From positions 1-44,161 of the forward strand of contig JAHFHD010000003.1 of the NCBI GenBank assembly GCA_023247075.1: DNA of 44,161 nucleotides, given 5' to 3'. This stretch comes from Candidatus Omnitrophota bacterium. GTDB taxonomy: Bacteria > Omnitrophota > Omnitrophia > Omnitrophales > Danuiimicrobiaceae. The notes under the pieces are model-generated. The model saw nothing but the letters and a program-made list of their open reading frames with translations. It did not search any database and was not told the DNA's origin. Shown one piece after another: positions 8,127 through 29,120 of this stretch. A program made the position numbers and the translations under genes. How positions within the stretch are numbered: the first letter of the stretch is position 1; each line of letters begins with the position of its first letter.

Positions 8127-8157
8127 AAAATTTACCAAACCAAAATTAATAAAAATC

Positions 8158-9058: not shown

Positions 9059-9068
9059 AAGGGACAAA

Positions 9069-10019: not shown

Positions 10020-10022
10020 TAC

Positions 10023-10177: not shown

Positions 10178-10213
10178 TTAATAATTTAAAAATTAAATGA
10201 AAGTTAAGAATTA

Positions 10214-10948: not shown

Positions 10949-10968
10949 GTTTAGGCGGGGGTCATTTC

Positions 10969-10996
10969 TTGACAGGCAAATGAGATTTGTTACAAT
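10969..10996 (+). promoter_or_regulatory. Near-consensus sigma70 promoter for yicC-gmk-rpoZ-coaC-coaB
   Basis: TTGACA (10969-10974), 16-nt spacer ending in TGT (extended -10 TGn), TACAAT (10991-10996). Confidence 0.55.
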
Positions 10997-11087
10997 GAAT
11001 CTCAGTTTAAGCAGCCTCGTTTTTCTCCTAAATAATTTAAAATCAATCATTTGTAGATGATGAAATAGGATGGGTGTCAGTAATCAT

Positions 11088-12561: not shown

Positions 12562-12766
12562 AAAATTAATTAAAGAAATCAGCAGTTATTACCGGCTTGT
12601 TTTAATCGCCTCCCAACGCGCCAATGAATTAATTAGCGGAGCTCAGCCGCTTGTCATGCCGGTGTCAAAAAAGGCGACCATCAATGCGCTTCAAGAAATT
12701 GCAAGAGGTAAAATCCATGTTGGAGCCAAGATTGAAAAAGCAGACAAGTCCAAAGCCTCCGGCTAA
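12545..12766 (+). CDS. rpoZ: DNA-directed RNA polymerase subunit omega
   Basis: 73 aa. Core YRLVLIASQRANEL. Conserved gmk-rpoZ synteny. Confidence 0.88.
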   Translation: MTIPIEKLIKEISSYYRLVLIASQRANELISGAQPLVMPVSKKATINALQEIARGKIHVGAKIEKADKSKASG

Positions 12767-13331
12767 TCCCACTGCTTTTAGCGAGAAGACAATTCTGCTC
12801 TGTATTTCAGGGAGCATTGCCGCATACCGCGCTTGTGAATTGGTACGAGAGCTTCGAAAAAGAGGGGCGCGGGTTTTCTGCCTCATGACAGAGTCTGCAA
12901 AAAAATTTGTGACTCCAATAACTTTTCGCGCGCTCAGCGGAAATCCAGTTTACTCAGACCCATTTTCGGAGACAGAAGATTGGAACATCATTCACACGGA
13001 TTTGGCTGACCGGGCTGATTTGATTTTAATTGCTCCTGCAACAGCTGACCTGATTGCACGCCTTGCATGTGGCTTTGCCGATGACCTTGTTACTTCCGTC
13101 GTGCTCGCATCACGGAGAAGAATCCTCGTGGTGCCCGCAATGAATGACCGCATGTACACACATCCAGCGACACAGGTAAATCTTGGAAAACTTCTTGAGA
13201 TGAATTATGAAGTCATGAAACCCATCGAAGGTGATTTAGTTTGCGGAAGGACAGCCATTGGTCACATTCCAAGTCTTGATGCAATCTTGTCTCGCGCTGA
13301 ATTAATGTTTTCTCGCCCAAATAGTATTTAA
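12717..13331 (+). CDS. coaC: Phosphopantothenoylcysteine decarboxylase (flavoprotein domain only, stand-alone CoaC)
   Basis: Motifs ILLCISGSIAAYRA, PAMNDRMYTHPATQ and LVCGRTAIGH. ATG 12717 has an AGAGGT RBS. The ORF track start 12651 lies deep inside rpoZ. Confidence 0.88.
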   Translation: MLEPRLKKQTSPKPPANPTAFSEKTILLCISGSIAAYRACELVRELRKRGARVFCLMTESAKKFVTPITFRALSGNPVYSDPFSETEDWNIIHTDLADRADLILIAPATADLIARLACGFADDLVTSVVLASRRRILVVPAMNDRMYTHPATQVNLGKLLEMNYEVMKPIEGDLVCGRTAIGHIPSLDAILSRAELMFSRPNSI

Positions 13332-13336
13332 TCCTC

Positions 13337-13996
13337 GTGCTTAAAAAACTCCGCGTTACTGTAACTGCCGGGCCGACACGAGAAATGTTAGATCCGGTTC
13401 GGTTTCTTTCTAATGTTTCGACGGGTCAAATGGGTTATGAGCTCGCGCGGGAAGCAAAACAATTGGGCTTCCAAGTGTCACTTGTGAGCGGGCCAACGCA
13501 TCTTGATCCACCGCAAAATGTTTTTCTCATTCGCGTGGTGACAGCCCACGAAATGAAGCAGGCAATCAAAAAATTGTGGCCTAAGACCGATGTTTTGATT
13601 ATGACAGCCGCTGTTTGTGATTACACGCCCGTTCATTTCTCACCTAGAAAAATCAAACGCATCAAACAAAAAAGCATCCAGTTCAAACGAACTGAAGACA
13701 TCCTCTCATTTTTTGGAAAAAGAAAAGGGAAGCGTTTGCTGGTCGGCTTTGCGCTTGAGACGGACCATTTTTTGGAATATGCGGTGCAAAAGTTAAAGGC
13801 AAAAAATCTCGACCTAATTGTTCTGAACTGGTACAACCAAACACACAATCCTTTTGGGCAAAACAAGGCCTCTATGATTTTAATTGACCGGAATGGGAAG
13901 AGGAGTACTCTGCGTCGGATGAGTAAACAAAATGCTGCGCACGAAATACTTGCGGAAACAATTACCCTTTTGGAATCTAGTACCTTGTCACATTAA
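13337..13996 (+). CDS. coaB: Phosphopantothenate--cysteine ligase (stand-alone CoaB)
   Basis: 219 aa. Motif VTAGPTREMLDPVRFLSNVSTGQMG. GTG start lies 5 nt after the coaC stop and in a different frame. Confidence 0.88.
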   Translation: MLKKLRVTVTAGPTREMLDPVRFLSNVSTGQMGYELAREAKQLGFQVSLVSGPTHLDPPQNVFLIRVVTAHEMKQAIKKLWPKTDVLIMTAAVCDYTPVHFSPRKIKRIKQKSIQFKRTEDILSFFGKRKGKRLLVGFALETDHFLEYAVQKLKAKNLDLIVLNWYNQTHNPFGQNKASMILIDRNGKRSTLRRMSKQNAAHEILAETITLLESSTLSH

Positions 13997-16218: not shown

Positions 16219-17625
16219 TTGCTCGTTATGAAAAAAAGTGGTCTGCTGATTTTGATTCTTTTCGCTTCACTAAGCTTGCTCACTCCCCAAACTCTTTTTG
16301 CTGTTGGTTCAGCCGGTATTGAGAATGCTTCTTTTAGTGGCCGTCAAATAGCGCAATCGGGTGCTGGAACGGCGCAAGCGGATGAGCCAGCTGCTATTTC
16401 TTACAATCCCGCCGGCATCACCCAGCTTGATGGTCTTCAAATTGAGCCCACGATGCATTTTATTGACATCTTCACTTTTTTTGAAAGTGATGAGCCCCTA
16501 AGCGGTGGTAAGGGAAGCAACACGCGAAGCTCCGGCACTGTTCTTCCAGTTCCCACAGGGTACATTACTTTTAAACCAAAAAATTGGTTTGACAACCGAA
16601 TTACTTTTGGCGTCGGCTCTGACTCACCATTTGGATTCTCCAACAAATTTAATTCAACCCATCCAATTGCTCAGCTTTCTGGATTTAAGAATTGGTTTAA
16701 AATGTACACAGTAAAACCAACTGTTGCAGTAAAACTAGCCGATTGGCTTTCGATTGGCGGTGGCCCAATGTATTACCGAATTTATGATTGGGGCGGTATT
16801 CAAGCTTACCCGAATATACTTTCGGCTGGAGCACCATTTGGTACCCTCAAGACAGATTTAGGACAAGTTCGCCTTAACTTGAGCGGAAATCACTGGGGCT
16901 GGCATTTCGGTGTGCTTGCAACACCGCATAAGCAGCATCAATTTGGTTTTTATTTTAGAAGCCCAGTTGTTGTCAAGACAAGTGGCATTATTAAAGTAAC
17001 TAATTCAAGCAGAGGATATTTTGAAACAGGTGGAAATGCAAAGTGGAGTTTGCCTATGAATTTGACGTGGGCATACGCATTTAAGCCGACTGAACGCGCT
17101 ACAATCGAATTTGATTTTGGGTATACTCGCTGGTCATCATTTGAGCGATTATTTATTAATGCTGATCCAGTAAGTCCAGCTGAAGACAATATTCTTAGTC
17201 TTATTGGAAAGAATAATAAAGATTGGAAGGACAGTTACAATTTGCAATTAGGTGGTAATTACAAGCTTACGAATCGCCTGACAATTCGCGGCGGCGGGTA
17301 TTTCTACACAAATTCAGTACCAGAGGTTTCCTTTATTTCTGCAGTACCCGATGGCAATCGGCTTGCTTATTCTCTGGGTGCGAGTTATGAAGTGAACAAA
17401 AACTTTGGGGTGGATGCAGCTTACCTCAACGTGTGGAATCTAAGGCGGACGGTCAATAATAATATTGGCAATGGCCTTGGTGTTTCTCAGGATGGTGATT
17501 ATGTCACCTACACTCAGGAAGCGACTGTTAGTTGCCGTTTTGCTTTTGATGACCCAATTGCAGATTTAGTGTCGACTACTTCCAATCCTTCTCCTGTTTC
17601 TCAAGAATTACCTCTTACGCTTTAG
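16219..17625 (+). CDS. Outer-membrane hydrophobic-compound channel, FadL/OmpP1/TodX family
   Basis: Signal peptide MKKSGLLILILFASLSLL...FA. N-terminal hatch motif SGAGTAQADEPAAISYNPAGI. Alternating beta-strand pattern through the rest of the protein. The start may be ATG 16228. Confidence 0.82.
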   Translation: MLVMKKSGLLILILFASLSLLTPQTLFAVGSAGIENASFSGRQIAQSGAGTAQADEPAAISYNPAGITQLDGLQIEPTMHFIDIFTFFESDEPLSGGKGSNTRSSGTVLPVPTGYITFKPKNWFDNRITFGVGSDSPFGFSNKFNSTHPIAQLSGFKNWFKMYTVKPTVAVKLADWLSIGGGPMYYRIYDWGGIQAYPNILSAGAPFGTLKTDLGQVRLNLSGNHWGWHFGVLATPHKQHQFGFYFRSPVVVKTSGIIKVTNSSRGYFETGGNAKWSLPMNLTWAYAFKPTERATIEFDFGYTRWSSFERLFINADPVSPAEDNILSLIGKNNKDWKDSYNLQLGGNYKLTNRLTIRGGGYFYTNSVPEVSFISAVPDGNRLAYSLGASYEVNKNFGVDAAYLNVWNLRRTVNNNIGNGLGVSQDGDYVTYTQEATVSCRFAFDDPIADLVSTTSNPSPVSQELPLTL

Positions 17626-17736: not shown

Positions 17737-17918
17737 TCATTAAAATTAAGATTATTGCAACTCGACCGCTTCCTTACCTTTCCAGATTCAATATGGTATT
17801 CTTCTTTAAAGAGTAAATTTCCGATTGTCAGCAAGGGTTGGCATCAGTACAATAATGCAACTTAAAATGCACTAATTGCGTTAACTGCGCTTATTAATTA
17901 CCAGGTTGAATTTTATTA

Positions 17919-18121
17919 TGACGAAACTTATTACTGCTAAAGAACTAAGTAAATTTCTTCGAGTCCCTAAGCGGACGGTTTACAAATTTGCTCAAGAAGG
18001 AACCATTCCAGGAACTATTCGAATTGGAAAGCATTGGCGGTTTAGAGAAGACATCATTCACCGTTGGATGGAAGAATCAAGCCAACCGCTGCATCCAACC
18101 AAAAACGGCGTTGAGGAATAA
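17919..18121 (+). CDS. Small excisionase/MerR-type helix-turn-helix DNA-binding protein
   Basis: LITAKELSKFLRVPKRTVYKFAQEGTIPGTIRIGKHWRFREDIIHRWM matches the HTH_17/excisionase-family pattern. Its stop lies 1 nt before the next ATG. Confidence 0.8.
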
Positions 18122-18122: not shown

Positions 18123-19709
18123 ATGAATCCCCCCATCAATGAATTAATCGAAGTGAGTGTTACCAAGATTCTTCCTGCACGAAAGTGGAAAGTCTTGAGG
18201 TTAATTACCCACATCGAGCGATTTCCTGAATTCATGCCGAATGTAAAATCCTGCAAAATTGAAGAGAAAAAATCGAGGACCACAAGTGTGACGAGCTGGA
18301 ATGTGGAGGTGGATGGGATTCCACTTAGTTGGAAGCAGGTCGACCAAATTGATTTTGAAAACTTCAAAGTTCGATTTAAAGCGATTGAAGGCGATTTGGA
18401 ATTTTTTGAAGGTACTTGGGAGCTTCAAGATGCAGAGGAGGGAAAAACCCGGGTGTCGGTTCAAATGAAAGCAAGAGTTGGAATACCAATCGTGACTCAA
18501 ACCATTCCTCAGGTGATGTGTGAGAAGATTGGAAGAAACTTTTTGATGATGCTCGAAGCGATGAATCAAATTCTTGTTGCTTACCGTTACAAAAATATTG
18601 GAGACCGGAAAGTAAGCGACTTAAGCGGATTTGCTGTGATTGGCCATCCATACAATTTTCAGCATTTGGTCCGGTACTTTAAGTTTTTTAAACCAGACAT
18701 GAAATTACCCTCCAATGAATTTGTCGCGGGTCTTTTTGATCTTGTCCCTTCATACAAAGCCTACGACATCAAGAATTTTAAGTCGAAAACTGGAAAGTCA
18801 GTGGACGGCTGTTTTGTAATGTGCCCGATTATTCCAGACATGGTTGAGGTCAGTCCAGAACGTGTGGTGGAAAAGGTGGTTCAGGCCTGTCGCGTAGCTG
18901 AGCAGTACGGGATGGGAATTGTGGTGCTTGGCGGATTCACTTCAATTGCAGGAGAAAGATTCCCAAAAGTTTTAATGGAATCGGTTCACATTCCCGTCAC
19001 AACTGGAAATGCACTAACGGTGGCGCTTGTCATTGACGGGATTGAAGAAGCAGCTCGCCTCATGGGCTGCGACTTGTCTCGGTCGAAGATGACGATTATT
19101 GGCGGCACTGGAGACATCGGAAGCGCAGTGGCGAGATATTTTTCAGAAAAAGTGCCCGAAATTACAATCACAAGCCGAAATGAGAAAAATTTGATGGACA
19201 CCGAGCGTACGCTTTTTTATTACGGGAAGGCGAAAATTAAAACAAGCCGGGACAGCGCTCAAGCAGTGCGAAATGCAGACGTCGTGCTTGCAGCAGCAAG
19301 TGTTTCAAATGCGCTTCTTGGTTTTGAAAATTTTAAGCCTGGGGCCATCATCTGTGACGTGGGGTATCCTAAGAACATTTCCTACACAGAGTGTAATCGA
19401 AAAGATATTTTCATTTTTTCAGGAGGGATTACCGCCCTTCCTTCCGAATTTAATCTGGGTTTTGATTTAGGTCTTCCCAATCCCCGCGTGCTTTACGGCT
19501 GCTTTGCAGAAGCAATTCTACTTGCCCTCGAAGACCGCTATGAGAATTTTTCTTGGGGAAAAGGGAACATTAGCCGCGATCGCGTCGAACTCATCCGCAT
19601 TGCAGCAAAGAAGCATGGCTTTGAGCTCGCACCTTTTTTCTGGGGGAATCGGCTCATGACGCCTGAAGACATTGAACAAATCCGGACGGTTGCCAAAGGA
19701 ACAGTCTAG
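18123..19709 (+). CDS. Fusion protein: N-terminal SRPBCC (START/cyclase-dehydrase) domain plus C-terminal acyl-ACP reductase (AAR)-like NAD(P)-binding domain
   Basis: 528 aa from ATG 18123; the track start 17988 overlaps the HTH gene. The N-terminal part contains ERFPEFMPNVKSCKI. The C-terminal part has the ordered motifs GFAVIGH, LGGFTSI, TTGNALT, GGTGDIGSAV, DVGYPKN, CFAEAILLA and NFSWGKGNIS. Confidence 0.8.
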   Translation: MNPPINELIEVSVTKILPARKWKVLRLITHIERFPEFMPNVKSCKIEEKKSRTTSVTSWNVEVDGIPLSWKQVDQIDFENFKVRFKAIEGDLEFFEGTWELQDAEEGKTRVSVQMKARVGIPIVTQTIPQVMCEKIGRNFLMMLEAMNQILVAYRYKNIGDRKVSDLSGFAVIGHPYNFQHLVRYFKFFKPDMKLPSNEFVAGLFDLVPSYKAYDIKNFKSKTGKSVDGCFVMCPIIPDMVEVSPERVVEKVVQACRVAEQYGMGIVVLGGFTSIAGERFPKVLMESVHIPVTTGNALTVALVIDGIEEAARLMGCDLSRSKMTIIGGTGDIGSAVARYFSEKVPEITITSRNEKNLMDTERTLFYYGKAKIKTSRDSAQAVRNADVVLAAASVSNALLGFENFKPGAIICDVGYPKNISYTECNRKDIFIFSGGITALPSEFNLGFDLGLPNPRVLYGCFAEAILLALEDRYENFSWGKGNISRDRVELIRIAAKKHGFELAPFFWGNRLMTPEDIEQIRTVAKGTV

Positions 19710-19797: not shown

Positions 19798-22005
19798 GTG
19801 ATTTTCAGTTTCCCATCACAATTCCAAATGAATTGGTATTCTTACCCAGTACTGATTGTGAGTACTGTCATCTTTTGCATCGGTCTTTTTGTTCTCCTCC
19901 AAAATCCAAAGTCGATTGTCAATAGCTGCTTTTTCTTGATTTGTCTGTGCGTTAATTTCTGGTTGTACGGCATTTCATTTGTTTACGGAGCAAATGGACC
20001 TGAACTTGCGCTCAACATTTACAAGCACATTACGTTTCTTGGTGTTTCATTTGTCGCAACAGGCGTTTATTGCTTTTCAGTAGCATGGCTCAAATTGTAT
20101 GAGCGCCAGAAATATCTGGTTTGGAGCGCGCTCTTAAGCAGCCTCACCTTTTATTTAACAGGCCTTTTTCTCCCGCAGAGTTTTCCACGCGCGACACTTT
20201 ATTTTTGGGGTTATTACCCAGTTTATGGCTCAACAACTCAAGCTTTCCTCCTCATTTTTTTCGGACTCTTTTTCGCTGCTTTTGCTAACTTTGTCCGCGC
20301 GTACCGGAGCGAACCACAACCAGTCAGAAAAACACAAATCCGCTTGATTGCTGTGGCATTTTTGATTTCGTTTATTGGCTCAATTGACTTCATTCCAAAA
20401 CTAACTTATTTCCCGGTTTACCCGGTTGGATTTACCTTTGTTTTTTGCTGGATTATGACCGTTGCCTATTCGATTGTGCGGTACAAAGTGATGGACATTG
20501 AAACAGTCATTCACAAGACCATTCTTTGGCTTGCAACTTCATCGATTGTGGTGCTTCCAATTGTTGGTCTCATGTTTTTTTTGAAAGGATGGTACCGGGA
20601 AGCGAGCCCAATTGCGCTCGCGCTTTGGACGAGTATTCTCCTTGTTTTATTCAATCTTTATTTAAGAACGGTGCAGCCAAAAATCGACCACTTTTTTAAA
20701 CGTAGGGAACTTGACCTTGAAGAAGCAGTTTTTCGTTTCAACGAGAGCTTGGTTCATCTCAAAGGACTTTCAGAATTGTCCAATTACATGGTTCAAACGA
20801 TTCGTGAAGTGCTTTATGTGGAACCAATTCAGATTTTTTTAAGGCATGGGGAGAAAAAAAGTTTTTTCAGAATCGATGGCGCGGCACATGGCGACGAAGA
20901 TCTTTTTTACGAAAACCCATTTATTCAATGGCTGGAACGGGACGACCGGGTGGCACTCGTTGAATTTGTAGGGCTCGACCCCCGCTTTCAATCGGTTGAG
21001 CAGGAAGCGGTAAATTTCTTCAAGCGGCTAAATGTTCACGCGAGCGTACCGCTTGTTTTAAACGGCGAACTGATTGGTCTGATTAATTTGGGACGAAAGA
21101 CAAATCTGAAGCCATTTCGCGCGGCGGAAGTTAAATTTCTCTCTGAATTTAGACGTGCTGCCACAATTGCGCTTTCAAATTCAGTTCGGTTAATTGAGAT
21201 GCAGGAAAATCTTAGGCGTTGGAATGAAGAACTTGAGGAAAAAGTGAAGCTCCGCACGAAAGAACTCGAAGAAACTCAAAAACAGCTCATTCAGGCTGAA
21301 AAACTTGCGACGATTGGTACGCTGGCAGGAGGCGTTGCACACGAAATCAACAACCCGCTTACGGCGGTGCTGACGAACGCGCAAATTTTGAAAATGGATG
21401 CCAAACCGGAAGATTTGGAATCCATCAGTTTAATTGAGGCTGGAGCCAAGCGCTGTCAGGAAATCATCCAGAAAATTATGAAATATGCCCGCCGGCCGCT
21501 TGGACCTGAGAAAGTTGAAGAGGTTGATTTGAATCGAGTAATTGAAACAGCCCTCTCATTTTTGAAGTACCAACTAAGTCAGGAAAATGTTAAGGTTACC
21601 ATTCAAAAGGCGGTGGGATTACCACTCATTCAGGCAAACAGTAATGAGCTTGAGCAAGTAGTGACGAACCTGATTTTGAATGCCAAAGATGCATTGAAGG
21701 GCGAGTCGCGTGAAGGGAAGATTGAGGTGAGTACCCATTTTAATGATGGTGCTGCAGAGCTGATTGTGGAGGACAATGGCCACGGCATTGCCCGAGAACA
21801 TCTGACCAAAATTTTTGACCCTTTTTTTACCACCAAACCCGTGGGTAAAGGAACTGGTCTCGGCCTGGCTGTGACGTACGGAATTGTCAAAAAATACAAC
21901 GGCCGGATTGAAGTCGATTCGCAAGTTGGCAAGGGAACCATATTTAAAGTGATTTTCCCCAAACACCTCCAGGCTTTAACGGGGGTTGGGAGTACGCATT
22001 CGTGA
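19798..22005 (+). CDS. Sensor histidine kinase: multi-pass (7TM-type) membrane domain, GAF, HisKA, HATPase
   Basis: About 7-8 hydrophobic helices in the first 260 aa. GAF-like end motif VPLVLNGELIGLINLGRK. H-box VAHEINNPL, N-box LILNAKDAL, G-boxes DNGHGI and GKGTGLGLAV. Confidence 0.9.
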   Translation: MIFSFPSQFQMNWYSYPVLIVSTVIFCIGLFVLLQNPKSIVNSCFFLICLCVNFWLYGISFVYGANGPELALNIYKHITFLGVSFVATGVYCFSVAWLKLYERQKYLVWSALLSSLTFYLTGLFLPQSFPRATLYFWGYYPVYGSTTQAFLLIFFGLFFAAFANFVRAYRSEPQPVRKTQIRLIAVAFLISFIGSIDFIPKLTYFPVYPVGFTFVFCWIMTVAYSIVRYKVMDIETVIHKTILWLATSSIVVLPIVGLMFFLKGWYREASPIALALWTSILLVLFNLYLRTVQPKIDHFFKRRELDLEEAVFRFNESLVHLKGLSELSNYMVQTIREVLYVEPIQIFLRHGEKKSFFRIDGAAHGDEDLFYENPFIQWLERDDRVALVEFVGLDPRFQSVEQEAVNFFKRLNVHASVPLVLNGELIGLINLGRKTNLKPFRAAEVKFLSEFRRAATIALSNSVRLIEMQENLRRWNEELEEKVKLRTKELEETQKQLIQAEKLATIGTLAGGVAHEINNPLTAVLTNAQILKMDAKPEDLESISLIEAGAKRCQEIIQKIMKYARRPLGPEKVEEVDLNRVIETALSFLKYQLSQENVKVTIQKAVGLPLIQANSNELEQVVTNLILNAKDALKGESREGKIEVSTHFNDGAAELIVEDNGHGIAREHLTKIFDPFFTTKPVGKGTGLGLAVTYGIVKKYNGRIEVDSQVGKGTIFKVIFPKHLQALTGVGSTHS

Positions 22006-23750
22006 AGATATTTGAAAGTTTACGCGCAAATCATCCGGATTCTTTGTCCACGCGAACGAATACGGTAAAGCGCCTGCTTTTAAACGGCAAACAATTAAAT
22101 GTTCGCCTGCTTGCTCAAAAAATGCTTGTTGCAAGCGGTCTCCTTGTCTTTGCTTCCATTATTTTTGGCGTGACACTCGTAAGCGGGCAAATCATTCTGG
22201 GTCAGTCCTTCAGCGTTGACGGGATTTTTATTTTTGCTTTGAGTATTTTTTTATTCGTCCTAGGGGTCGAACCTGCACGTCAATTTCTCACTCAGGTTAT
22301 AAGCCCGCTTGTTATTCAGCGGAAATTTGATTACCGAAGACTCTTGAAAGATGCGCCTGCCATTATTTCCAAAATTAAAAGCTTAGATCATTTACTGAGT
22401 CTCGTGGTTCATTTTGTGACGATGCGGTTAAAAGTGAAAAATGCGGCTGTATTGATGCATGACGCGGAGCGGCATGTGTTTAGTCTGGTAGAGCCGCGTG
22501 GGTACGCGGAGCAGCACCGGGCGCGTGAGCGAATGATTTTTAATGAACAAGATCCGTTCATCCGTTTTTTGGCTTCTGAACATGCTCCTCTTTCTTTGGT
22601 ATGGGTGCGGGAATGTCTCAAAGTAGATGGCTCCATTCAAAAGTTGGATGACGAAAAAGAAAATTATGATTTCCGTTTAATCGAGTCGCGCATGCAGGAG
22701 CTTAGCGCAAGCTGCTGCATCCCCAGCTTTTTGGGAAAAGAATTGAGAAATGTGCTAATTCTTGGCGAGCGAAAATCTGGCGAAGTTTATTTGGAAGAAG
22801 ATTTGAATGCACTTTACCTCGTGGCACAGGAGTCGGCCATTGCGGTTGAAAATGCCCGTCTTTATGACCAGGCGGTTGAAAAAGCCAAAGAACTTGAGGT
22901 GATTAACCGTCAGCTTAATCAGGCGCAGAATCAATTGATTCAAGCGCTGCGCGAAACGGAAGTGGCCAATAAAAGGCTTCGGGACACACATGTCCAGCTC
23001 ATCCATGAACAAAAAATGGCGACGCTTGGCCGGCTTGCTTCCTCCGTTGGGCACGAAGTGAATAATCCACTCACCATTCTTTCAATGAATGTGAGCCGGG
23101 CCATTCTCAAGTACCGCAGAAATCCAGATTTGAAGGTGAGTGAGATTACAGACACGTTTGAAAAAATGGAACAGAATATTTCCCGCATCAAGGCTGTGGT
23201 CAATACGTTGACCGGCCTCCTCAAAAAGTCAGAGCACGGAAAATTTGAGCCCCTTTCACTTAAGCTGGTTCTGGAAGAAACGCTTCCACTCGTTCAATTT
23301 CAAACTTACCTTGAGAATCTTTCCGGCACCGAAGTTGAATTTGATATTCCGAACAATCTTCCTTTAATTAAAGGCGACCTCGAGCGGCTTCAGGAAGTAT
23401 TCCTGAATTTGTTTATTAATGCCTACCACGCGATGATTGGGAAACGGAACCGTAGAATTACCGTTTCGGCGCGCGAACATCCTGCTCACCCTGCAATGGT
23501 CATATTGGAATTTACTGACAATGGTTGCGGGATGAGTGATGAGGTGATGAAAAAGATTTTTTCCTATGGATTTACAACGAAACCAGCCGGAAAAGGTTCG
23601 GGAATGGGGCTTTACATGTGCCACTACATTGTAGAGCTCCACGGCGGGGAAATTAAAGTTCGCTCTAAAGTGGGAGAAGGAACCACTTTTGTCATTACAC
23701 TCCCGACTTATGAAGAGAACGTTGAATCGAATACACTTGAAAAACAGTAA
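22002..23750 (+). CDS. Sensor histidine kinase: TM helices, GAF, HisKA, HATPase
   Basis: GTGA overlap with the upstream kinase. GAF end motif LRNVLILGERKSGEVYLEEDLNALYLVAQESAIAVENARLY. H-box VGHEVNNPL. G-boxes DNGCGM and GKGSGMGL. Confidence 0.9.
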   Translation: MKIFESLRANHPDSLSTRTNTVKRLLLNGKQLNVRLLAQKMLVASGLLVFASIIFGVTLVSGQIILGQSFSVDGIFIFALSIFLFVLGVEPARQFLTQVISPLVIQRKFDYRRLLKDAPAIISKIKSLDHLLSLVVHFVTMRLKVKNAAVLMHDAERHVFSLVEPRGYAEQHRARERMIFNEQDPFIRFLASEHAPLSLVWVRECLKVDGSIQKLDDEKENYDFRLIESRMQELSASCCIPSFLGKELRNVLILGERKSGEVYLEEDLNALYLVAQESAIAVENARLYDQAVEKAKELEVINRQLNQAQNQLIQALRETEVANKRLRDTHVQLIHEQKMATLGRLASSVGHEVNNPLTILSMNVSRAILKYRRNPDLKVSEITDTFEKMEQNISRIKAVVNTLTGLLKKSEHGKFEPLSLKLVLEETLPLVQFQTYLENLSGTEVEFDIPNNLPLIKGDLERLQEVFLNLFINAYHAMIGKRNRRITVSAREHPAHPAMVILEFTDNGCGMSDEVMKKIFSYGFTTKPAGKGSGMGLYMCHYIVELHGGEIKVRSKVGEGTTFVITLPTYEENVESNTLEKQ

Positions 23751-24601
23751 TGAGAATCAAGTTTAATTTACCTGCCGCCACTTTTTTTCTTGCCGTCTTA
23801 CTAGCCAGTTCTAATTTTCTTTTTGCAAACATCACGGGTAAGGATGAAGAAACTGTCCATCGCATCGTTAGTGAAGTGCTAAATGAAAAGATGGGGAATT
23901 TCATTGCAGTCAGGCGCGGCGTTTTGCATCACGGCGAGCGAATTCCACTGCCTATTTTCCAGGATGGAACGACTGCCAAGCGCAGTGAATGCACCTATTT
24001 TGTTTCACCGAAGGAAATCACAACTTCAATTTCCCAGATGTCGGTTTTTCAGGGCCGCTCACAGTCACGTCGGGATTTAGAGCAATTGTCTGATGCAGAC
24101 AAGCGAAAAGCGCTTGAAAAAGAATTACTCAAACCGGAACCAGCAGCTGACATTAAGGCAGAATTAGAAAAGCTTGTTAATTTTAACAAAAGTGAAAGTA
24201 AAGATGCCATTCTGAACCTCGCTTCAGAAATGGTGGGCCTTAAAGAAGAGTTGAGGGGTCAATCGTTTTCAGAAGGTGCCATTTATTATGTGACATGCAG
24301 CGTGACAGACGACGGTCAAGTGGAAATTGGTCTCTGGAAAGACCGCGTTGTGGGTCCTGATGCAAATGTGGCGGATGACCAGGCTTTTAAAAATTTAGAA
24401 AAGTATTACAAAGAACGGGGCATTAGTTCTGCGACGCCAAATTCAGTCGATCCCCAGCTTGAAATTTACAAAGGACTTAAAGAGCGGCTGCTCGTGAATT
24501 ATTTGGTTATTGCAATCCGTGGAGAAAAGGCGAAAAGTCTGCGGCAAGAATTAACAGCTCAAATCACCAAACCTTTCAGAAGAATCAAGAGCAACGTTTA
24601 G
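23750..24601 (+). CDS. Secreted/periplasmic protein of unknown function
   Basis: 1-nt TAATG overlap with the kinase gene. Signal peptide MRIKFNLPAATFFLAVLLASSNFLFA. No motifs recognised. Confidence 0.6.
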   Translation: MRIKFNLPAATFFLAVLLASSNFLFANITGKDEETVHRIVSEVLNEKMGNFIAVRRGVLHHGERIPLPIFQDGTTAKRSECTYFVSPKEITTSISQMSVFQGRSQSRRDLEQLSDADKRKALEKELLKPEPAADIKAELEKLVNFNKSESKDAILNLASEMVGLKEELRGQSFSEGAIYYVTCSVTDDGQVEIGLWKDRVVGPDANVADDQAFKNLEKYYKERGISSATPNSVDPQLEIYKGLKERLLVNYLVIAIRGEKAKSLRQELTAQITKPFRRIKSNV

Positions 24602-24610: not shown

Positions 24611-24817
24611 GGGTGCATCCCACTTTATCCAGTGTGTCATTCTTCGCCAAAAGGACGAATCCGTCCTCTGGCGGATGAGGCGAAGCCGAAGAATCTAGCG
24701 AACTTAGATCCTTCGCGGAGTTTACCCTGAGCGCCAGATCCTTCACTTCGTTCAGGATGACACAGCGAAGGGCTCAGGATGACATGAAAAACAACCGCAT
24801 CAAGTGGGATACGCCTT
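24611..24817 (-). mobile_element. Full-length ~200-bp MITE-like element, inverted relative to the copies at 38705 and 41829
   Basis: Ends GGGTGCATCCCACTTTATCCAG... and ...CATCAAGTGGGATACGCC are imperfect terminal inverted repeats. The 9-bp sequence CTCGTCTCT occurs at 24602-24610 and 24818-24826. Confidence 0.85.
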
Positions 24818-24911
24818 CTCGTCTCTCTGCGACCAGCTTGCAGGGCTTGGTAATCTTGAAAATCAGCGTGTATACTTATTCAAGAAAAGGAAAAAGAGGA
24901 GTTTTCCCATT

Positions 24912-25352
24912 ATGAAAACCATTTTGATTGTGGATGATGAAGAAGGAATTTCGAAACTGCTTGCAGAAAATCTAACCGAGGACGGTTACAAGGTTGTTAT
25001 TGCCACTAATGGCGAAGATGGCCTCAGAAAAGCTCAAATTACAAAACCCGATCTCGTGATTTTAGACGTGATGATGCCGAAGATGGACGGAGCAGAAATG
25101 TGCGCCCACCTCAGAGAAAACGCGAAAACCAAAGACCTCCCAATTATTTTTATGACCGGTCTTAAAACCAAAAACGATGATTTTCAGCTTGGCCGTGATG
25201 TGGGCAACCACACCATTTTCTCAAAACCTTTTGATTATGACGAGCTCTTGGGAACCATCCGCGAAATGCTAAACATCAAAGGTGAAAGTCAGGCCGGCTC
25301 AATTCTCAAAGGTGTTGCACAGAAATTTCTAGGACGAAAAAAAAGCACTTGA
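24912..25352 (+). CDS. Single-domain response regulator (CheY-like receiver)
   Basis: GAGGAG RBS. Motifs MKTILIVDDEEG, DLVILDVMMPKMDG, IFMTG and SKPF. The track start 24804 lies in the repeat and is not credible. Confidence 0.9.
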   Translation: MKTILIVDDEEGISKLLAENLTEDGYKVVIATNGEDGLRKAQITKPDLVILDVMMPKMDGAEMCAHLRENAKTKDLPIIFMTGLKTKNDDFQLGRDVGNHTIFSKPFDYDELLGTIREMLNIKGESQAGSILKGVAQKFLGRKKST

Positions 25353-25409
25353 TGTTTTGCAGACCAGTCCTTGGGCGGCGATTCTCGAGGAACAACAGAG
25401 GAGAAGGCG

Positions 25410-25799
25410 ATGTCAAAGAACATTCTCGTTGTCGATGATGAACCTGAAATAGCTTTGCTCGTTGCAAGCCGGCTGCGCACCGCCGGTTATCAAGTTCAAG
25501 TTGCAAAGGATGGTGAGCAGGCGCTTCGGCTTGTCACCATCACAAAACCAGATTTGATTGTCTTAGACGTGGCTCTTCCGGGAATGAGCGGCGGTGATGT
25601 GTGTGCTCATTTGCAGAAAGATGAAAAAACAAAATATATTCCCATTATTTTTTTAACGGCGCTTAAAACCAAAGAGGATGACGTAAGGCTTGGTTTTGAC
25701 ATTGGCCGCCACACTATTTTTGCAAAACCCTTTAACCCTCAAGAATTTTTAGGTGCAGTTCGGGATGCTTTGGCAGCCCAGAAAGCATCCAAGAGTTAA
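25410..25799 (+). CDS. Single-domain response regulator (paralogue of 24912-25352)
   Basis: Motifs MSKNILVVDDEPE, DLIVLDVALPGMSG, IFLTA and AKPF. Shares LKTK-DD--LG-D-G-HTIF-KPF with the preceding receiver. Confidence 0.9.
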   Translation: MSKNILVVDDEPEIALLVASRLRTAGYQVQVAKDGEQALRLVTITKPDLIVLDVALPGMSGGDVCAHLQKDEKTKYIPIIFLTALKTKEDDVRLGFDIGRHTIFAKPFNPQEFLGAVRDALAAQKASKS

Positions 25800-25825: not shown

Positions 25826-27460
25826 ATGTTGCATTCAAAGCACGCCATTAAATCTAAAACTCTGAGCGGTTCTCAAATTGAGGTCGAGCAACTTCAAAAA
25901 AAAGTGGAATTACTTCAAAAAGAGCTTGAGCTGCGCGAGCTCGACGCAAAGAAATCTCAGGAAGACTTCACTATTTTGCGGCAAGAGCTGAAGCGAAGCC
26001 GGGAACAAACACGTGTCGTGATTGAAACGGCAAGTGACGCCTTCATCGGAACGGATGCGCGCGGGCTTATTATTGATTGGGACCGTCAAGCGGAAATTAC
26101 ATTTGGCTGGTCCCGGTCTGAAGTCGTTGGTCTTCCATTTGCAGACACAGTTATTTCCCCAAAATTTAGAACTGCTTATGATGAAACCATCCAGCGATTT
26201 GTAGAAACAGGAGACGGGCAAATTTTCATCAATCGAAGATTCCAGACAACGGCGCTTGACCGGAATATGCGCGAATTTCCGATTGAACTTTCAGTTTGGC
26301 CGGTGGATGGCGGGGCTGCCTACCGGTTTAATGCATTTGTACGTGACATGAGTGAGCGTAAGCGCCTTGAGCATCTTAAGAATGAATTTGTGAGCACAGT
26401 TTCTCACGAGCTCAGGACACCAATGACGATTATTCGTGAAGGAGTGAGTCAGGTGGTCGATGGCCTTTTAGGTTCGATTAATGAAGAACAGAAACAATTC
26501 CTCAATATTTCGCTTGGCGCCATTGACCGATTAACCCGAATTGTCAATGACCTGCTTGATTTCTCAAAGATTGAATCCGGAAAAGTCGAGCTTAAAAAAG
26601 AACATGTTGACTTAACAAAACTCGCCCAGGACGTTATCTCGAATTTTCATTCCCGCGCTCAGGAACTTGGACTTGAAATTTGTTTTGAACCTTCAAGTCC
26701 AAAACTCGAGCTTTACCTTGATCGTGACAAGGCGATTCAGATTTTTATAAATTTAATTGGAAACGCACTCAAATTTACTGACACTGGATTGATTACCATT
26801 TCCATCACGGACCGGGAAAAAATGGTGGAGTGCAGCGTCAAAGACACCGGCCGCGGAATCAGCGCTCGCGACCTTCCTCATGTGTTTGGGAAGTTTCAGC
26901 AGTTTTCAAGAGAAGCGGGCCCGGGAGAAAAAGGAACGGGACTTGGGCTTGCCATTTGCAAGGGCCTGGTCGAGCTTCATGGAGGAGCAATTACAGTTTC
27001 AAGCGAACTTGGTTCCGGCACCACATTTACATTTTCATTTCCAAAGTACACGGCAAGGCAGGTTTTTTTGCAGCGCTTGATACACGAGGTAAACGAAGCT
27101 ATGCGCAGGGAAGAATCCCTTGCGGTTTTGCTTCTGACCATTTCGCGTCTTGATTTTGTACGCCGCACCGTTGGTGAAGAACGTTTTCAAATGATTCAGA
27201 AAAAAATGTTAGGTCGAATTCAAGGTGAGTTGAGGACTCAGGATGACCATATTGTCAGTGACCCCCCGCACGTACTTGCAACATTTCGGAAAACGAAAAA
27301 AGAAGATGCACTTTTAATCGGCGGCCGGCTTCAGCAAATCCTGGATGAGGAACTCACACAGCAAGGCATTGTGGATCAAGTGGGTATTGGATGCCGCGTT
27401 GTAAGCTTTCCGGATGAAGCTCTGAATGCTGATGACCTCCTCAACCTTTTGTTCCGTTAA
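25826..27460 (+). CDS. Soluble histidine kinase: coiled coil, PAS, HisKA, HATPase, degenerate GGDEF-like C-terminal domain
   Basis: No TM segment. H-box VSHELRTPMT, N-box LIGNALKFT, G-boxes DTGRGI and GTGLGLAI. The C-terminal ~135 aa follow a GGDEF-fold pattern with DPPHV in place of GGEEF. Confidence 0.88.
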   Translation: MLHSKHAIKSKTLSGSQIEVEQLQKKVELLQKELELRELDAKKSQEDFTILRQELKRSREQTRVVIETASDAFIGTDARGLIIDWDRQAEITFGWSRSEVVGLPFADTVISPKFRTAYDETIQRFVETGDGQIFINRRFQTTALDRNMREFPIELSVWPVDGGAAYRFNAFVRDMSERKRLEHLKNEFVSTVSHELRTPMTIIREGVSQVVDGLLGSINEEQKQFLNISLGAIDRLTRIVNDLLDFSKIESGKVELKKEHVDLTKLAQDVISNFHSRAQELGLEICFEPSSPKLELYLDRDKAIQIFINLIGNALKFTDTGLITISITDREKMVECSVKDTGRGISARDLPHVFGKFQQFSREAGPGEKGTGLGLAICKGLVELHGGAITVSSELGSGTTFTFSFPKYTARQVFLQRLIHEVNEAMRREESLAVLLLTISRLDFVRRTVGEERFQMIQKKMLGRIQGELRTQDDHIVSDPPHVLATFRKTKKEDALLIGGRLQQILDEELTQQGIVDQVGIGCRVVSFPDEALNADDLLNLLFR

Positions 27461-27481
27461 CCGACTTGGCTGGTGCTGCTT

Positions 27482-27844
27482 ATGACTCGGAAAGTATTGG
27501 TTGTGGAAGATGAGCCTGTACTTGCTGCAATGATTCAGTCGCGGCTTGAATCGAATCAATATGAAGTTTCAATCGCGGGGAATGGATTGGAAGGACTCAA
27601 GCAAATTGAAAGAGCGAAGCCAGATCTGATTGTGATGGACATTGCGATGCCTCAAATGGATGGCTACACGCTCGCAAAAATGCTTCGGAGCCGAATAGAA
27701 TTTAAAGAAATTCCAGTGATTGTCGTCACAGCAAAGGGAAATCAGCTCAAAAGTCTGTTTGAACTTGAGGGAATCACTGATTATTTAATTAAGCCATTTC
27801 AGGCCCAGGAGTTGCTTGAGCGAGTCAAGAAGCACATTGGTTAA
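27482..27844 (+). CDS. Single-domain response regulator
   Basis: Motifs MTRKVLVVEDEP, DLIVMDIAMPQMDG, VVTAK and IKPF. Confidence 0.9.
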   Translation: MTRKVLVVEDEPVLAAMIQSRLESNQYEVSIAGNGLEGLKQIERAKPDLIVMDIAMPQMDGYTLAKMLRSRIEFKEIPVIVVTAKGNQLKSLFELEGITDYLIKPFQAQELLERVKKHIG

Positions 27845-27858
27845 GGAGCATTAGAATC

Positions 27859-29064: not shown

Positions 29065-29120
29065 AGTATTGTCCTGTTTGGCCTTCATAAAAGTAGTAGC
29101 TTATAATTCAGGAGTGCTTT

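Follow-up and report, generated by a model that had tools for sequence, protein, structure and literature searches.

The gene at positions 18123-19709 (+) of the 44,161-nucleotide stretch of Candidatus Omnitrophota DNA analysed here (the window) encodes a 528-aa protein in which an SRPBCC (START/Bet v 1-like) domain is fused to a thioester reductase resembling the acyl-ACP reductase (AAR) of cyanobacteria. Within the AAR-like thioester-reductase superfamily the protein is a member specific to Omnitrophota, and represents a known kind of enzyme in a new architecture and a new system context. The architecture, fold and catalytic residues are conserved across the phylum, the gene is linked in an operon to a histidine kinase with a membrane sensor region of the 7TM type, and that sensor region co-varies with the tailoring genes found between the two.

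The SRPBCC-reductase fusion protein

The open reading frame translates without stops. A small HTH_17 gene ends in a TAA (18119-18121) 1 nt before the ATG of the frame (18123), and the last codons of that gene contain a Shine-Dalgarno motif, GAGGA (18113-18117, +), read from the sequence. Homologues are 520-540 aa long and can be aligned from about residue 5, which supports the start at ATG 18123. The 528-aa frame 1 nt after the HTH stop, and all the motifs quoted in an earlier sequence-only reading of this DNA, were present in the translation of 18123-19709; the AAR motifs listed in that reading were compared with the deposited 6jzu sequence.

An error of assembly, frameshift or gene calling that merged two neighbouring genes was considered as a source of the fusion, and would be in keeping with the occurrence of the SRPBCC and AAR-like domains as separate adjoining genes in Brocadiia and Desulfobacterales. 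However, one unbroken frame of 520-540 aa was found in more than 120 protein clusters and 80 species genomes, the linker is modelled with confidence (pLDDT 84-90), and R155 and Y156, which lie directly before the linker in the C-terminal SRPBCC helix, are conserved. At least 80 species-level genomes from independent assemblies encode the full-length frame, with identities of 44-77%, indicating that the fusion is genuine; given these genomes and the more than 120 full-length homologues, an artefact was ruled out and its probability is negligible. In the AlphaFold2 model of the whole protein (pLDDT 89, pTM 0.85), the pTM indicates that the arrangement of the two domains is defined.

The SRPBCC domain (residues ~9-157; 18147-18593, +) was identified by Pfam, the AlphaFold2 model and Foldseek. 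Residues 23-125 matched PF03364 Polyketide_cyc (2e-13, 51.1 bits against a cut-off of 23.4), and the fusion protein also scored above the cut-off for PF10604 Polyketide_cyc2 (34.9 bits against 27.4). The model shows a sheet of seven strands, with a long helix at the C-terminal end of the domain. Foldseek aligned the domain with TTHA0849 (2d4r) at a TM of 0.91, and PYR/PYL structures were also among the fold matches. The Pfam scores and the fold match bear out the SRPBCC fold that had been proposed for the N-terminal part. Four aromatic residues, W59, W70, F85 and W99, do not vary among 44 homologues, which hints at a cavity that may bind a hydrophobic ligand.

The reductase domain (residues ~170-528; 18630-19706, +) is longer than AAR at its C-terminus, by an extension of ~25 aa. 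A Shikimate_DH-type Rossmann domain was found by Pfam at residues 310-428, and residues 218-501 matched the NCBIfam model TIGR04058 (AcACP_reductase; 3e-46, 158.3 bits). The top PDB sequence match was S. elongatus AAR (6jzq, 2e-36), and a Foldseek comparison with AAR chain 6jzy_A covered the entire AAR chain (E 3e-26, TM 0.83). Homology to AAR, which the sequence-only reading had proposed, extends over residues ~170-501. Identity to AAR was 31% across 325 aligned residues in a pairwise global alignment, from which the residue equivalences given here were taken.

The cysteine of the CFAEA motif, C460 (codon 19500-19502, +), aligns with the AAR nucleophile C294, confirming the earlier assignment, and is invariant in 44/44 close and 20/20 distant relatives. 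Also invariant in the 44 close homologues are the TTGN motif (T293-N296; 18999-19010, +), the counterpart of AAR T128-N131 and of a Thr-Thr-Gly in the TAD of NRPS enzymes, where it positions the catalytic Cys (10.1101/2024.10.28.620694); the dinucleotide-binding loop, GGTGDIG here and GG(T/A)GDIG in the family (residues 327-333; 19101-19121, +), which aligns with 162-GATGDIG-168 of AAR (PMC7089970); and R352 and D412/Y415/P416/K417, which map to AAR R189 and D244-K249. The set of C460, TTGN, GGxGDIG, R352 and D412-K417 is retained in relatives at 27-35% identity. A reading of the domain as a catalytically dead sensor was ruled out for the fusion, in which all catalytic residues are conserved, but holds for a stand-alone paralogue present in some operons. 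The fold, the invariant Cys, the T-T-G at the domain junction and the Rossmann loop are those of the AAR-like thioester-reductase superfamily (COG5322; AAR, PigE-N, KecF-C and TAD), which comprises 2622 clusters (50% identity, E <= 1e-3). The catalytic mechanism of AAR, with the part played by C294, has been described (PMC7089970; 10.1101/2024.10.28.620694), and by homology the fusion very probably reduces a thioester to an aldehyde via C460. The putative substrate, cofactor and aldehyde product are assigned from homology at 31% identity, and the role of the SRPBCC domain is likewise a putative one.

The protein had been described as a homologue of the cyanobacterial-type AAR. The homology stands, but orthology does not: the score of 158.3 bits is far under the curated TIGR04058 cut-off of 449.7 bits and equals that against the PigE N-domain model (NF053554, 155 bits). 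Five AAR residues (R73, R79, K80, R118 and Y247) contact the aldehyde-deformylating oxygenase ADO, and the R73A and R79A substitutions each abolish ADO binding (PMC7089970). Three of the five are lost in the fusion family, in which R73 is replaced by P/I/M, R79 by E/Q and R118 by H/N/K, and only K251 and Y415 are kept. Searches for ADO by phmmer and tblastn, with the SeADO sequence (verified as identical to PDB 4quw) as query, gave no match at E <= 10 in the window and 85 related loci (1.33 Mb in total), extending the earlier observation that none is encoded in the window. A canonical AAR of an alkane/alkene pathway, with ADO or an analogous partner encoded elsewhere, would be suggested by the homology itself and by some databases, which label members 'fatty aldehyde-generating acyl-ACP reductase' or 'Long-chain acyl-ACP reductase'. 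Against this stand the low score, the replaced contact residues, the ADO-free flanks of the 86 loci and the position of the SRPBCC domain, which sits N-terminally beside the AAR-like N-terminal domain, where the ADO-docking surface is found in AAR (PMC7089970). The low score, the replacement of docking residues and the 1.33 Mb of flanks without ADO ruled out a true AAR orthologue with a hidden ADO, and a canonical alkane pathway is very improbable.

Distribution and operon context

A scan of GTDB species genomes identified 135 that encode a relative. All of the 80 retained (80/80) carry the full-length fusion, and nearly all of these are Candidatus Omnitrophota. The host of the gene in the window, suggested earlier to be a non-cyanobacterial diderm, belongs to this phylum. 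In a sister clade at ~33% identity, HTH_17 and PilZ domains are also fused on, giving HTH_17-PilZ-SRPBCC-AAR. Unfused SRPBCC and AAR-like proteins are encoded by adjoining genes in Brocadiia and Desulfobacterales, where the orthologous SRPBCC gene (29-34% identity) lies directly upstream of the AAR-like gene; the pairing is older than the fusion. The Desulfobacterales cassettes combine SRPBCC, AAR-like and GMC genes with an acyl-AMP ligase, ACP and a radical-SAM enzyme, and the similar Brocadiia pair lies in a biosynthetic cluster; both are without kinases. These kinase-free biosynthetic clusters indicate that the ancestral role was probably lipid or metabolite biosynthesis. The architecture had not been recognised as one already described, and in the literature searched no paper was found on an SRPBCC-acyl-ACP reductase or on an Omnitrophota acyl-ACP reductase. 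Searches on Omnitrophota quorum sensing and histidine kinases retrieved nothing on signalling in the phylum, and a search on HisKA_7TM retrieved only archaeal surveys.

Downstream of the fusion lies its partner, a multi-pass membrane sensor histidine kinase with a 7TM-type N-terminus followed by GAF, HisKA and HATPase domains (Pfam; 19798-22005, +; ATG 19828 is a likely alternative start). About nine hydrophobic segments are predicted, and the kinase has no match to PF16927 (HisKA_7TM) at E <= 1. Its first 310 aa can be aligned over their full length with kinases from two related loci that do match PF16927 (L018, 44% identity, 8e-93; L016, 4e-56). Among loci with at least 4.5 kb of downstream sequence, 53/54 carry a 7TM kinase gene on the same strand within 4 kb downstream of the fusion; the intergenic gap is at most 120 nt in 29 of the 54, and the genes overlap in 17. 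As a control, such a kinase was found within 4 kb upstream in 3/61 loci and 4-8 kb upstream in 0/51. The placing of a putative synthase gene next to a membrane kinase gene is the arrangement of lipid-signal modules. The linkage is kept in the HTH_17-PilZ-SRPBCC-AAR clade at ~33% identity, and at the exceptional locus, L054, a stand-alone PilZ gene takes the place of the kinase. The conserved gene order is (HTH_17), SRPBCC-AAR, (optional tailoring enzymes), 7TM-GAF kinase, then a second kinase and receivers. This operon context moves the likely role of the protein from hydrocarbon or lipid metabolism to signalling. The near-universal kinase operon was not part of the sequence-only reading.

Further genes of the window extend this signalling context. 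The start of a second histidine kinase gene (22002-23750, +; Pfam HisKA, HATPase) overlaps the stop of the first, and a second kinase is also found downstream in many related loci. It is followed by a 283-aa protein with no family match (23750-24601) and by two single-domain response regulators (24804-25352 and 25371-25799, +; Pfam Response_reg); receiver-only proteins occur downstream of the kinase in 40/84 loci. A signalling array of a PAS histidine kinase, a receiver, a HisKA-HATPase-GGDEF hybrid and another receiver (25826-29489, +) is tied to the fusion by position only, an association not kept within 10 kb in other loci, and leads to a type IV pilus operon (29486-38656) that begins 9.8 kb downstream of the fusion. 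A conserved link to type IV pili was rejected, as PilB/PilC were not found within 10 kb downstream in other loci, and the pilus operon is local context only.

Upstream, the HTH_17 gene (17906-18121, +; Pfam 9e-15) encodes a small excisionase/MerR-like DNA-binding protein and is translationally coupled to the fusion; its start is more likely ATG 17919 than the listed TTG 17906, and 27/84 related loci also have an HTH_17 gene ahead of the fusion. Among sigma-70-like promoter sites of the region, the one with the best match (TTGTCA-17-TACAAT, 10/12; 17825-17853, +) precedes the HTH_17 gene by ~65 nt. The operon may start there, although the evidence is weak, since sites in the region are no more numerous than in shuffled controls; promoter and terminator scans in general performed no better than on shuffled sequence. 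Directly upstream lies a gene for a FadL/TodX-family outer-membrane channel for hydrophobic molecules (16219-17625, +; Pfam Toluene_X 2e-45), which is possibly associated, with a FadL gene upstream of the fusion in 6/84 loci. RND pumps are encoded near the fusion in several loci. An RND pump identity for the 1108-aa frame at 4749-8075 was rejected, as this is CarB in a pyrimidine operon. The locus in the window has neither a tailoring gene nor an obvious exporter.

Sensor co-variation and the proposed module

The genes found between the fusion and the kinase vary by lineage, and all are of aldehyde- or alcohol-handling types, which supports an aldehyde as the intermediate of the pathway. Some loci contain a class-III aminotransferase with a GNAT or a formyltransferase, and Aminotran_3 is encoded directly downstream of the fusion at L001, L011, L014 and L058, an insertion that matches, by analogy, the known PigE/KecF logic of an AAR-like reductase followed by a transaminase. 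Others contain a CCR/DFR-type SDR (~890 aa, with a 556-aa tail that has no family match), and further inserted genes encode a GMC oxidoreductase, ALDH, a B12-radical-SAM enzyme and a methyltransferase. About 20 changes of tailoring class were counted on the enzyme tree.

Divergence of the kinase 7TM region tracked tailoring class in a partial Mantel test with enzyme divergence and kinase catalytic-domain divergence as controls (r 0.54, p <= 0.0005, the loci not being phylogenetically independent), while no significant relation was found for the kinase catalytic domain (r 0.08). L016 and L018 share 90% identity in the enzyme and 82% in the kinase catalytic domain, but only 26-37% over the first 200 kinase residues. 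Co-variation of the kind expected between a receptor and its signal is thus seen in the 7TM region only, as a correlation that is not fully corrected for phylogeny. At ~30% identity, the differences between 7TM regions may reflect module swapping instead of ligand-driven divergence.

A mechanism can be proposed in which an acyl group would pass from acyl-ACP or acyl-CoA onto Cys460 of the C-terminal domain, and reduction of the thioester with NAD(P)H would set free a lipid aldehyde. The fused SRPBCC domain would bind the hydrophobic chain and most likely take over the aldehyde, the role played in cyanobacteria by the docked oxygenase ADO as aldehyde receiver. The aldehyde or, depending on lineage, an amine, N-acyl-amine, alcohol or other derivative would be the ligand of the 7TM region of the adjacent kinase, and the whole would form a self-contained lipid-signal synthase and receptor module. 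In the sister clades the module would also be gated by c-di-GMP via PilZ and coupled to DNA binding via HTH_17. Lipid-derived signals sensed by membrane kinases are known, as in DSF/RpfC (PMC5391125) and 3-OH-MAME/PhcS (PMC11960443). The FadL channels and RND pumps encoded near the fusion in several loci also fit the model. We infer that the product is the ligand of the kinase, and the chances that the full synthase-receptor model is right or wrong are about even. The broader claim of a new class of lipid signalling, in which an SRPBCC-chaperoned AAR-type reductase and diversifying tailoring enzymes would supply a co-evolving 7TM kinase, with PilZ/c-di-GMP gating and HTH feedback in some clades, is put forward only tentatively. 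Against the model, AAR-like relatives can carry out other chemistry, as suggested by TAD, which may amidate and uses NAD (10.1101/2024.10.28.620694), and the linkage and co-variation are correlational. The locus in the window, with no tailoring gene or obvious exporter and with a kinase N-terminus that falls short of HisKA_7TM significance in Pfam, and the kinase-free unfused pairs also weigh against it.

Some of the loci point towards lipid biosynthesis. A PlsC-type acyltransferase gene lies directly upstream of the fusion in 31/84 loci, and downstream of the kinases a receiver domain is joined to HMG-CoA reductase at L050 and to a ketoacyl synthase at L004; these features fit a membrane-lipid homeostasis circuit equally well. 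The enzyme may feed fatty aldehyde or alcohol into a structural lipid (alkyl-ether, fatty alcohol or wax-type), its product being a building block and not a signal; the 7TM kinase would then respond to the state of the membrane and control lipid synthesis. The kinase-free unfused cassettes of Desulfobacterales and the similar pair in Brocadiia are consistent with such a role, and the association of a reductase, an acyltransferase and an FAD enzyme recalls the logic of eukaryotic and myxobacterial ether-lipid synthesis. However, translational coupling to a sensor kinase in 53/54 loci is rare for housekeeping lipid genes, and a structural-lipid role does not account for a 7TM region that alone changes with the tailoring set while the enzyme and kinase core stay 70-90% identical. 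The ~20 switches of tailoring class, a lability atypical of core membrane lipids, and the PilZ and HTH_17 fusions are also left unexplained, and this alternative is considered unlikely.

The PilZ and HTH_17 fusions bear on another alternative, in which SRPBCC-AAR is itself the sensor, of the acyl-ACP pool or of a bound ligand, through its acylation, NADPH or lipid-bound state; it would relay by contact to the kinase, or to DNA (HTH_17), and to c-di-GMP (PilZ), with no ligand released. The four-domain HTH_17-PilZ-SRPBCC-AAR proteins recall bifunctional enzyme/regulators such as BirA, PutA and MocR. The PilZ that stands alone in place of a kinase at L054, a stand-alone paralogue with Ala replacing the catalytic Cys in some operons, and the existence of SRPBCC ligand receptors in plants, with PYR/PYL among the fold matches, also fit. 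In contrast, the catalytic residues are strictly conserved in ~65 sequences including the PilZ clade, which argues for real turnover, and the aldehyde-modifying enzymes encoded downstream imply product release. The part of the kinase that co-varies is moreover the membrane region, not the cytoplasmic GAF/DHp where a soluble partner would dock. A trigger enzyme of this kind is improbable.

Comparison with known systems

To our knowledge, work on AAR has dealt almost exclusively with its place at the start of alkane synthesis in cyanobacteria and with its use for biofuels, non-cyanobacterial relatives have been described only from pigment, alkaloid or NRPS pathways, in which they form domains, and Omnitrophota have no cultured model and no known signalling chemistry. 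The present analysis defines a large, phylum-wide AAR-like subfamily with a new architecture. The SRPBCC fusion could be a natural answer to the poor solubility and slow product release of AAR, and is of practical interest for making aldehydes or alcohols. The near-invariant coupling to a kinase, together with the change of its sensor with the tailoring genes, yields a testable hypothesis of a lipid signal and its receptor. If true, no chemical communication or autocrine system would have been proposed before for the uncultured, possibly host-dependent Omnitrophota, and the AAR enzyme family would gain its first signalling role; the pair would also provide a candidate ligand class for the orphan HisKA_7TM sensor family.

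Cyanobacterial AAR (S. elongatus orf1594; TIGR04058; 6JZQ/6JZU/6JZY) shares with the fusion a three-part fold (TM 0.83), 31% identity, the CFAEA Cys, TTGN, the GxTGDIG loop, (T/S)xR after beta-2, D-x-G-Y-P-K-N and NFSWG, and by homology likely the same ping-pong reduction of a thioester to an aldehyde. The fusion differs in its N-terminal SRPBCC domain, its C-terminal helix of ~25 aa, the loss of docking residues, the absence of ADO from the flanks searched, its phylum, and a sensor-kinase operon instead of an ADO neighbour. The stand-alone SRPBCC proteins (TTHA0849, the CoQ10/RatA group, polyketide ARO/CYC and PYR/PYL) have in common with the Omnitrophota domain the helix-grip fold and PF03364 and PF10604, but only the latter is covalently linked to a reductase.

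PigE, KecF and PtTAmH, fusions of a reductase with a class-III transaminase (NF053554; PDB 4PPM), contain a homologous reductase domain (155 bits to the PigE model), and their logic of aldehyde formation followed by transamination recurs in Omnitrophota loci L001, L011, L014 and L058. In Omnitrophota, however, the transaminase is a separate gene if present, with none in the window, the fusion partner is SRPBCC, and the context is signalling and not a pigment or alkaloid cluster. The TAD of CarI and other NRPS (PDB 9E4S-9E56) has the same two-lobed fold (Foldseek 2e-20), an equivalent invariant Cys and the Thr-Thr-Gly. TAD is NAD-specific, dimeric and NRPS-embedded, with a proposed role in amidation, whereas the Omnitrophota protein is discrete and keeps the AAR-type R352.

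In RpfF/RpfC (DSF), PhcB/PhcS (3-OH-MAME), and CqsA/CqsS and LqsA/LqsS (alpha-hydroxyketones), as in Omnitrophota, the gene for an enzyme that acts, or in Omnitrophota is predicted to act, on fatty-acyl thioesters adjoins that for a polytopic membrane histidine kinase. In the putative Omnitrophota module the kinase sensor is of the HisKA_7TM type with GAF. The enzymes of the known pairs are a crotonase, a methyltransferase or a PLP acyltransferase, whereas that of Omnitrophota is an unrelated AAR-type reductase. The Omnitrophota loci also resemble the agr and com polymorphisms, in which a hypervariable sensor region changes together with the genes for biosynthesis.

The fusion protein and its predicted chemistry

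The fusion gene (18123-19709, forward strand) forms an uninterrupted ORF of 528 codons. Its translation contains every motif quoted in the sequence-only reading, which had proposed an N-terminal SRPBCC domain joined to a homologue of cyanobacterial acyl-ACP reductase (AAR), with no aldehyde-deformylating oxygenase (ADO) as partner. The ATG lies 1 nt past the stop codon of an HTH_17 gene (71 aa) and is preceded, 5 nt upstream, by a GAGGA ribosome-binding site. Homologues measure 520-540 aa and align from about residue 5, which makes a longer in-frame start (TTG 17988) unlikely. Pfam models for SRPBCC (Polyketide_cyc and Polyketide_cyc2) matched residues 10-125 and a Rossmann domain was found at residues 310-428, while the NCBIfam AAR model, TIGR04058, matched residues 218-501 (3e-46). 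Among solved structures, the top match by sequence was Synechococcus elongatus AAR (2e-36). An AlphaFold2 model built from 44 homologues was confident (pLDDT 89, pTM 0.85), and Foldseek matched it to the whole AAR chain (6jzy_A, E 3e-26, TM 0.83) and to the SRPBCC protein TTHA0849 (TM 0.91), in agreement with both proposed domains.

The AAR and ADO query sequences were checked against the PDB and were identical to the deposited chains. Pairwise alignment of the fusion with AAR gave 31% identity over 325 positions. C460, the cysteine of the CFAEA motif, aligned with AAR C294, the acyl-thioester nucleophile (PMC7089970), as had been suggested from sequence, and was invariant in 44 homologues. 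Also invariant in this set were T293-N296 (AAR T128-T-G-N131), the GG(T/A)GDIG sequence at 327-333 (the AAR dinucleotide loop), and D412, Y415, P416 and K417 (AAR D244, Y247, P248 and K249); R352 (AAR R189) was kept in 43 of the 44. The cysteine, E463, T293/G295, the glycine loop and D412/P416 were retained in relatives with as little as approximately 27% identity. Because the catalytic residues match those of AAR and stay conserved, we expect an active enzyme that follows the ping-pong chemistry of AAR, and consider this proposal very likely.

The description of the protein as an AAR homologue with a matching nucleophile stood. The fusion is not, however, an orthologue of cyanobacterial AAR: its TIGR04058 score of 158 bits falls far short of the curated cut-off (449.7) and is level with its score to the PigE N-domain model (155 bits). 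Single replacement of AAR R73, R79, K80 or Y247 with alanine abolishes ADO binding, and R118 likewise touches ADO (PMC7089970). Three of these five contact positions are replaced in the fusion family: R73 by P, I or M, R79 by E or Q, and R118 by H, N or K. Neither the window, as the sequence-only reading had stated, nor the 85 related loci yielded an ADO homologue (1.33 Mb searched in all). Together, the low model score, the replaced contacts and the absence of ADO from these loci effectively exclude the canonical alkane pathway. The rest of the window contained no wax-ester synthase or aldehyde reductase; it holds a pyrimidine operon, YicC, Gmk, CoaB/CoaC, a signalling array and a type IV pilus operon. 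The CoaBC halves (12651-13996) are separate adjoining ORFs, Flavoprotein/CoaC at 12651-13331 and DFP/CoaB at 13337-13996, rather than the usual single fused gene.

Distribution and origin of the fusion

A protein-database search returned 832 relatives, the best 120 of which share the two-domain architecture at 49-77% identity and are named Candidatus Omnitrophota or Omnitrophica wherever a taxonomic name is given. When one genome per GTDB species was scanned, a relative was encoded in 135 genomes, of which 80 were retained; each of these has the fusion at full length (44-63% identity). Its presence at full length in both sets shows the fusion to be genuine and effectively excludes an artefact. 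Nearly all of the 80 are Omnitrophota MAGs, with a few labelled Planctomycetales or Uhrbacteria. Labels of Candidatus Uhrbacteria, Planctomycetales or Planctomycetia on MAGs carrying the fusion operon (loci L036, L049, L061, L062, L070, L072, L074, L078, L083 and L085) are probably binning or taxonomy mislabels, horizontal transfer being less likely.

The AAR-like domain superfamily comprises 2622 clusters (50% identity, E <= 1e-3), mostly of stand-alone proteins of 350-380 aa. The nearest stand-alone relatives, at 40-42% identity, occur in Brocadiia (Planctomycetota) and Desulfobacterales. Both encode, upstream in the same cluster, an SRPBCC protein 29-34% identical to the N-terminal domain of the window protein; its gene directly adjoins the AAR-like gene in Brocadiia and is separated from it by a GMC oxidoreductase gene in Desulfobacterales. 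Neither cluster contains a kinase. Since the two genes are clustered unfused in both groups, the partnership is ancient, and their fusion and the coupling to a kinase are two separate Omnitrophota steps.

The Desulfobacterales cluster (L090:3778-11380, GCA_034520365.1) further encodes an acyl-AMP ligase, a carrier protein, a radical-SAM enzyme, thioredoxin, an RND pump, SBF and an LGT-like protein. Its GMC/Fe-S oxidoreductase is 40% identical to the Omnitrophota counterpart, and the cluster looks like an uncharacterised lipid biosynthetic pathway. In the Candidatus Brocadiia locus (L089:6546-14143, GCA_046538415.1), from an anammox lineage, the unfused SRPBCC and AAR-like genes are followed by genes for a TPP-dependent enzyme and a 1413-aa BcrAD_BadFG/DUF2229 protein of the dehydratase-activator type. 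A second, stand-alone AAR-like paralogue (approximately 330-347 aa) lies upstream of the PlsC and fusion genes in L063 (8350-9393) and also occurs in L057, L062, L067, L071, L074 and L081. It is 24% identical to the fusion AAR domain and has no Pfam match. This paralogue is probably a pseudoenzyme or binding subunit because alanine replaces the catalytic cysteine (AALAEP versus GCFAEA).

The operon and its signalling links

ORFs were called in all 86 loci and searched with profiles built on Pfam-checked seeds. Downstream sequence of 4.5 kb or more was available for 54 loci; in 53 of them, a same-strand kinase of approximately 720-770 aa, with a 7TM region, GAF, HisKA and HATPase domains, follows the fusion within 4 kb. 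The gap is at most 120 nt in 29 loci, and the coding regions overlap in 17. As a control, such a kinase was found upstream within 4 kb in 3 of 61 loci and at 4-8 kb in 0 of 51; other flanking genes vary from locus to locus. The sole exception, L054, has a stand-alone PilZ gene where the kinase is expected; this overlapping gene is accompanied by genes for an outer-membrane beta-barrel, a radical-SAM protein and a secretin (6832-11277), with no kinase downstream. In the window, the partner kinase is encoded at 19798-22005 on the forward strand. Pfam makes no call at its N-terminus, yet residues 1-310 align end to end with PF16927-positive kinases of related loci (L018, 8e-93), and approximately nine hydrophobic segments are predicted.

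Between the fusion and kinase genes, some loci carry Aminotran_3 with GNAT or a formyltransferase, others a CCR/DFR-type SDR (337 aa, or fused to a 550-aa tail without known family), a GMC-type FAD/Fe-S oxidoreductase or a B12-radical-SAM enzyme; ALDH and methyltransferases lie just past the kinase. Almost all of these enzymes consume or interconvert aldehydes, which independently supports an aldehyde as the predicted fusion product. Loci with Aminotran_3 beside the AAR-like enzyme mirror the established logic of PigE/KecF.

Several further genes were noted around the module. In L034 (8600-15500), L031, L024 and L045, the primary kinase gene is succeeded by a tandem array of up to five genes for short 7TM histidine kinase paralogues (approximately 460 aa each), which suggests local expansion of the receptor family. 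A two-gene cassette of an HTH/nucleotidyltransferase (MarR/TrmB and NTP_transf_2) and a small second gene (HEPN in L087, no Pfam match in L013) lies between enzyme and kinase in L013 (11778-12730) and upstream of the enzyme in L087 (7537-8518); the cassette resembles a mobile insertion of the toxin-antitoxin type. In the window, a gene at 23750-24601, flanked by those of the second kinase and the receivers, encodes a 283-aa protein with a signal-peptide-like N-terminus; Pfam gave no match to it, and none of the 85 related loci has a counterpart.

Upstream of the fusion were found a PlsC-type acyltransferase (31/84 loci), HTH_17 (27/84) and FadL (6/84). In an Omnitrophota sister clade (approximately 33% identity), the enzyme itself takes the form HTH_17-PilZ-SRPBCC-AAR-like (approximately 720 aa) or PilZ-SRPBCC-AAR-like (approximately 650 aa), as in P0144, P0281 (L086:9001-11184), P0282 (L087:9001-11166) and P0284 (L088:3754-5730). 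All catalytic residues are kept, and an overlapping HisKA_7TM-GAF kinase gene comes next. Because the separate HTH_17 gene of the window is a fused domain in this clade, there is Rosetta-stone evidence that the HTH_17 protein and the enzyme would work together; the PilZ domain is predicted to add c-di-GMP input. The HTH and PilZ fusions would also suit a model in which the fusion protein is a trigger enzyme or sensor, which we consider improbable given the strict catalytic conservation and the tailoring enzymes encoded downstream.

The window also encodes a histidine kinase fused to a GGDEF domain (27859-29064), with a receiver next, and then a PilB-type ATPase with MshEN (29486-31192). The ATPase gene opens a type IV pilus operon that includes PilC, pilin, PilM and PilO and extends to approximately 38656. 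MshEN is a c-di-GMP-binding domain, and the signalling array may control pili via c-di-GMP.

Co-variation of the sensor with the tailoring genes

For 67 enzyme-kinase pairs, pairwise divergence was compared between the enzyme and two parts of the kinase, its 7TM region and its catalytic region. Difference in tailoring class, the kind of aldehyde-modifying gene set between the two genes, predicted 7TM divergence with the other two distances controlled (partial Mantel r 0.54, p <= 0.0005, phylogenetic correction being partial) but not catalytic-domain divergence (r 0.08, not significant). At enzyme distances below 0.35, the 7TM distance was 0.43 within and 0.69 between classes, and the kinase catalytic distance 0.27 and 0.31, respectively. 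Loci L016 (SDR) and L018 (none), for example, are 90% identical in the enzyme and 82% in the kinase catalytic region but 26-37% in kinase residues 1-200. The same pattern was seen for L027 and L028 and for L063 and L067; it was absent from the same-class pair L063 and L062 (90, 92 and 90%). A UPGMA tree built for the enzyme shows approximately 20 switches of tailoring class, and the signal therefore does not come from one event. This correlational pattern, in which module swapping and rapid divergence look alike, is expected if the membrane sensor recognises the pathway end product.

The best-supported model, to which we give roughly even odds, is that a synthase of lipid aldehydes, carrying its own lipid-binding domain, would make a ligand that passes to the co-operonic 7TM kinase. 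Its main rival, a circuit for membrane-lipid biosynthesis or homeostasis, is favoured by the PlsC genes near the fusion, by the biosynthetic clusters that lack a kinase in other phyla and by receiver domains fused to HMG-CoA reductase and ketoacyl synthase; it leaves the sensor-specific co-variation and the lability of the tailoring genes unexplained, and we regard it as rather unlikely. These receiver (Response_reg) fusions, encoded just downstream of the 7TM kinases, to HMG-CoA reductase in L050 (15256-17067, 604 aa) and to ketoacyl synthase in the last gene of L004 (start 17556, running off the locus, 559 aa), imply that isoprenoid and fatty-acid synthesis may be phosphorylation-controlled in Omnitrophota.

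Family proteins carry generic database names ('SRPBCC family protein', 'NAD(P)-binding domain-containing protein', 'fatty aldehyde-generating acyl-ACP reductase'). A literature search found no publication on the SRPBCC-AAR architecture, which the first inspection had not recognised as described, nor any on AAR-like enzymes from Omnitrophota or on the ligands that HisKA_7TM kinases bind. The enzyme itself is of a kind already known, in changed form. As a system, a synthase and its tailoring enzymes linked to a 7TM kinase that co-varies, joined in some clades by PilZ and HTH, appears to be undescribed. The agr and com systems show specificity-group polymorphism, which the co-variation of sensor and tailoring genes observed here resembles.
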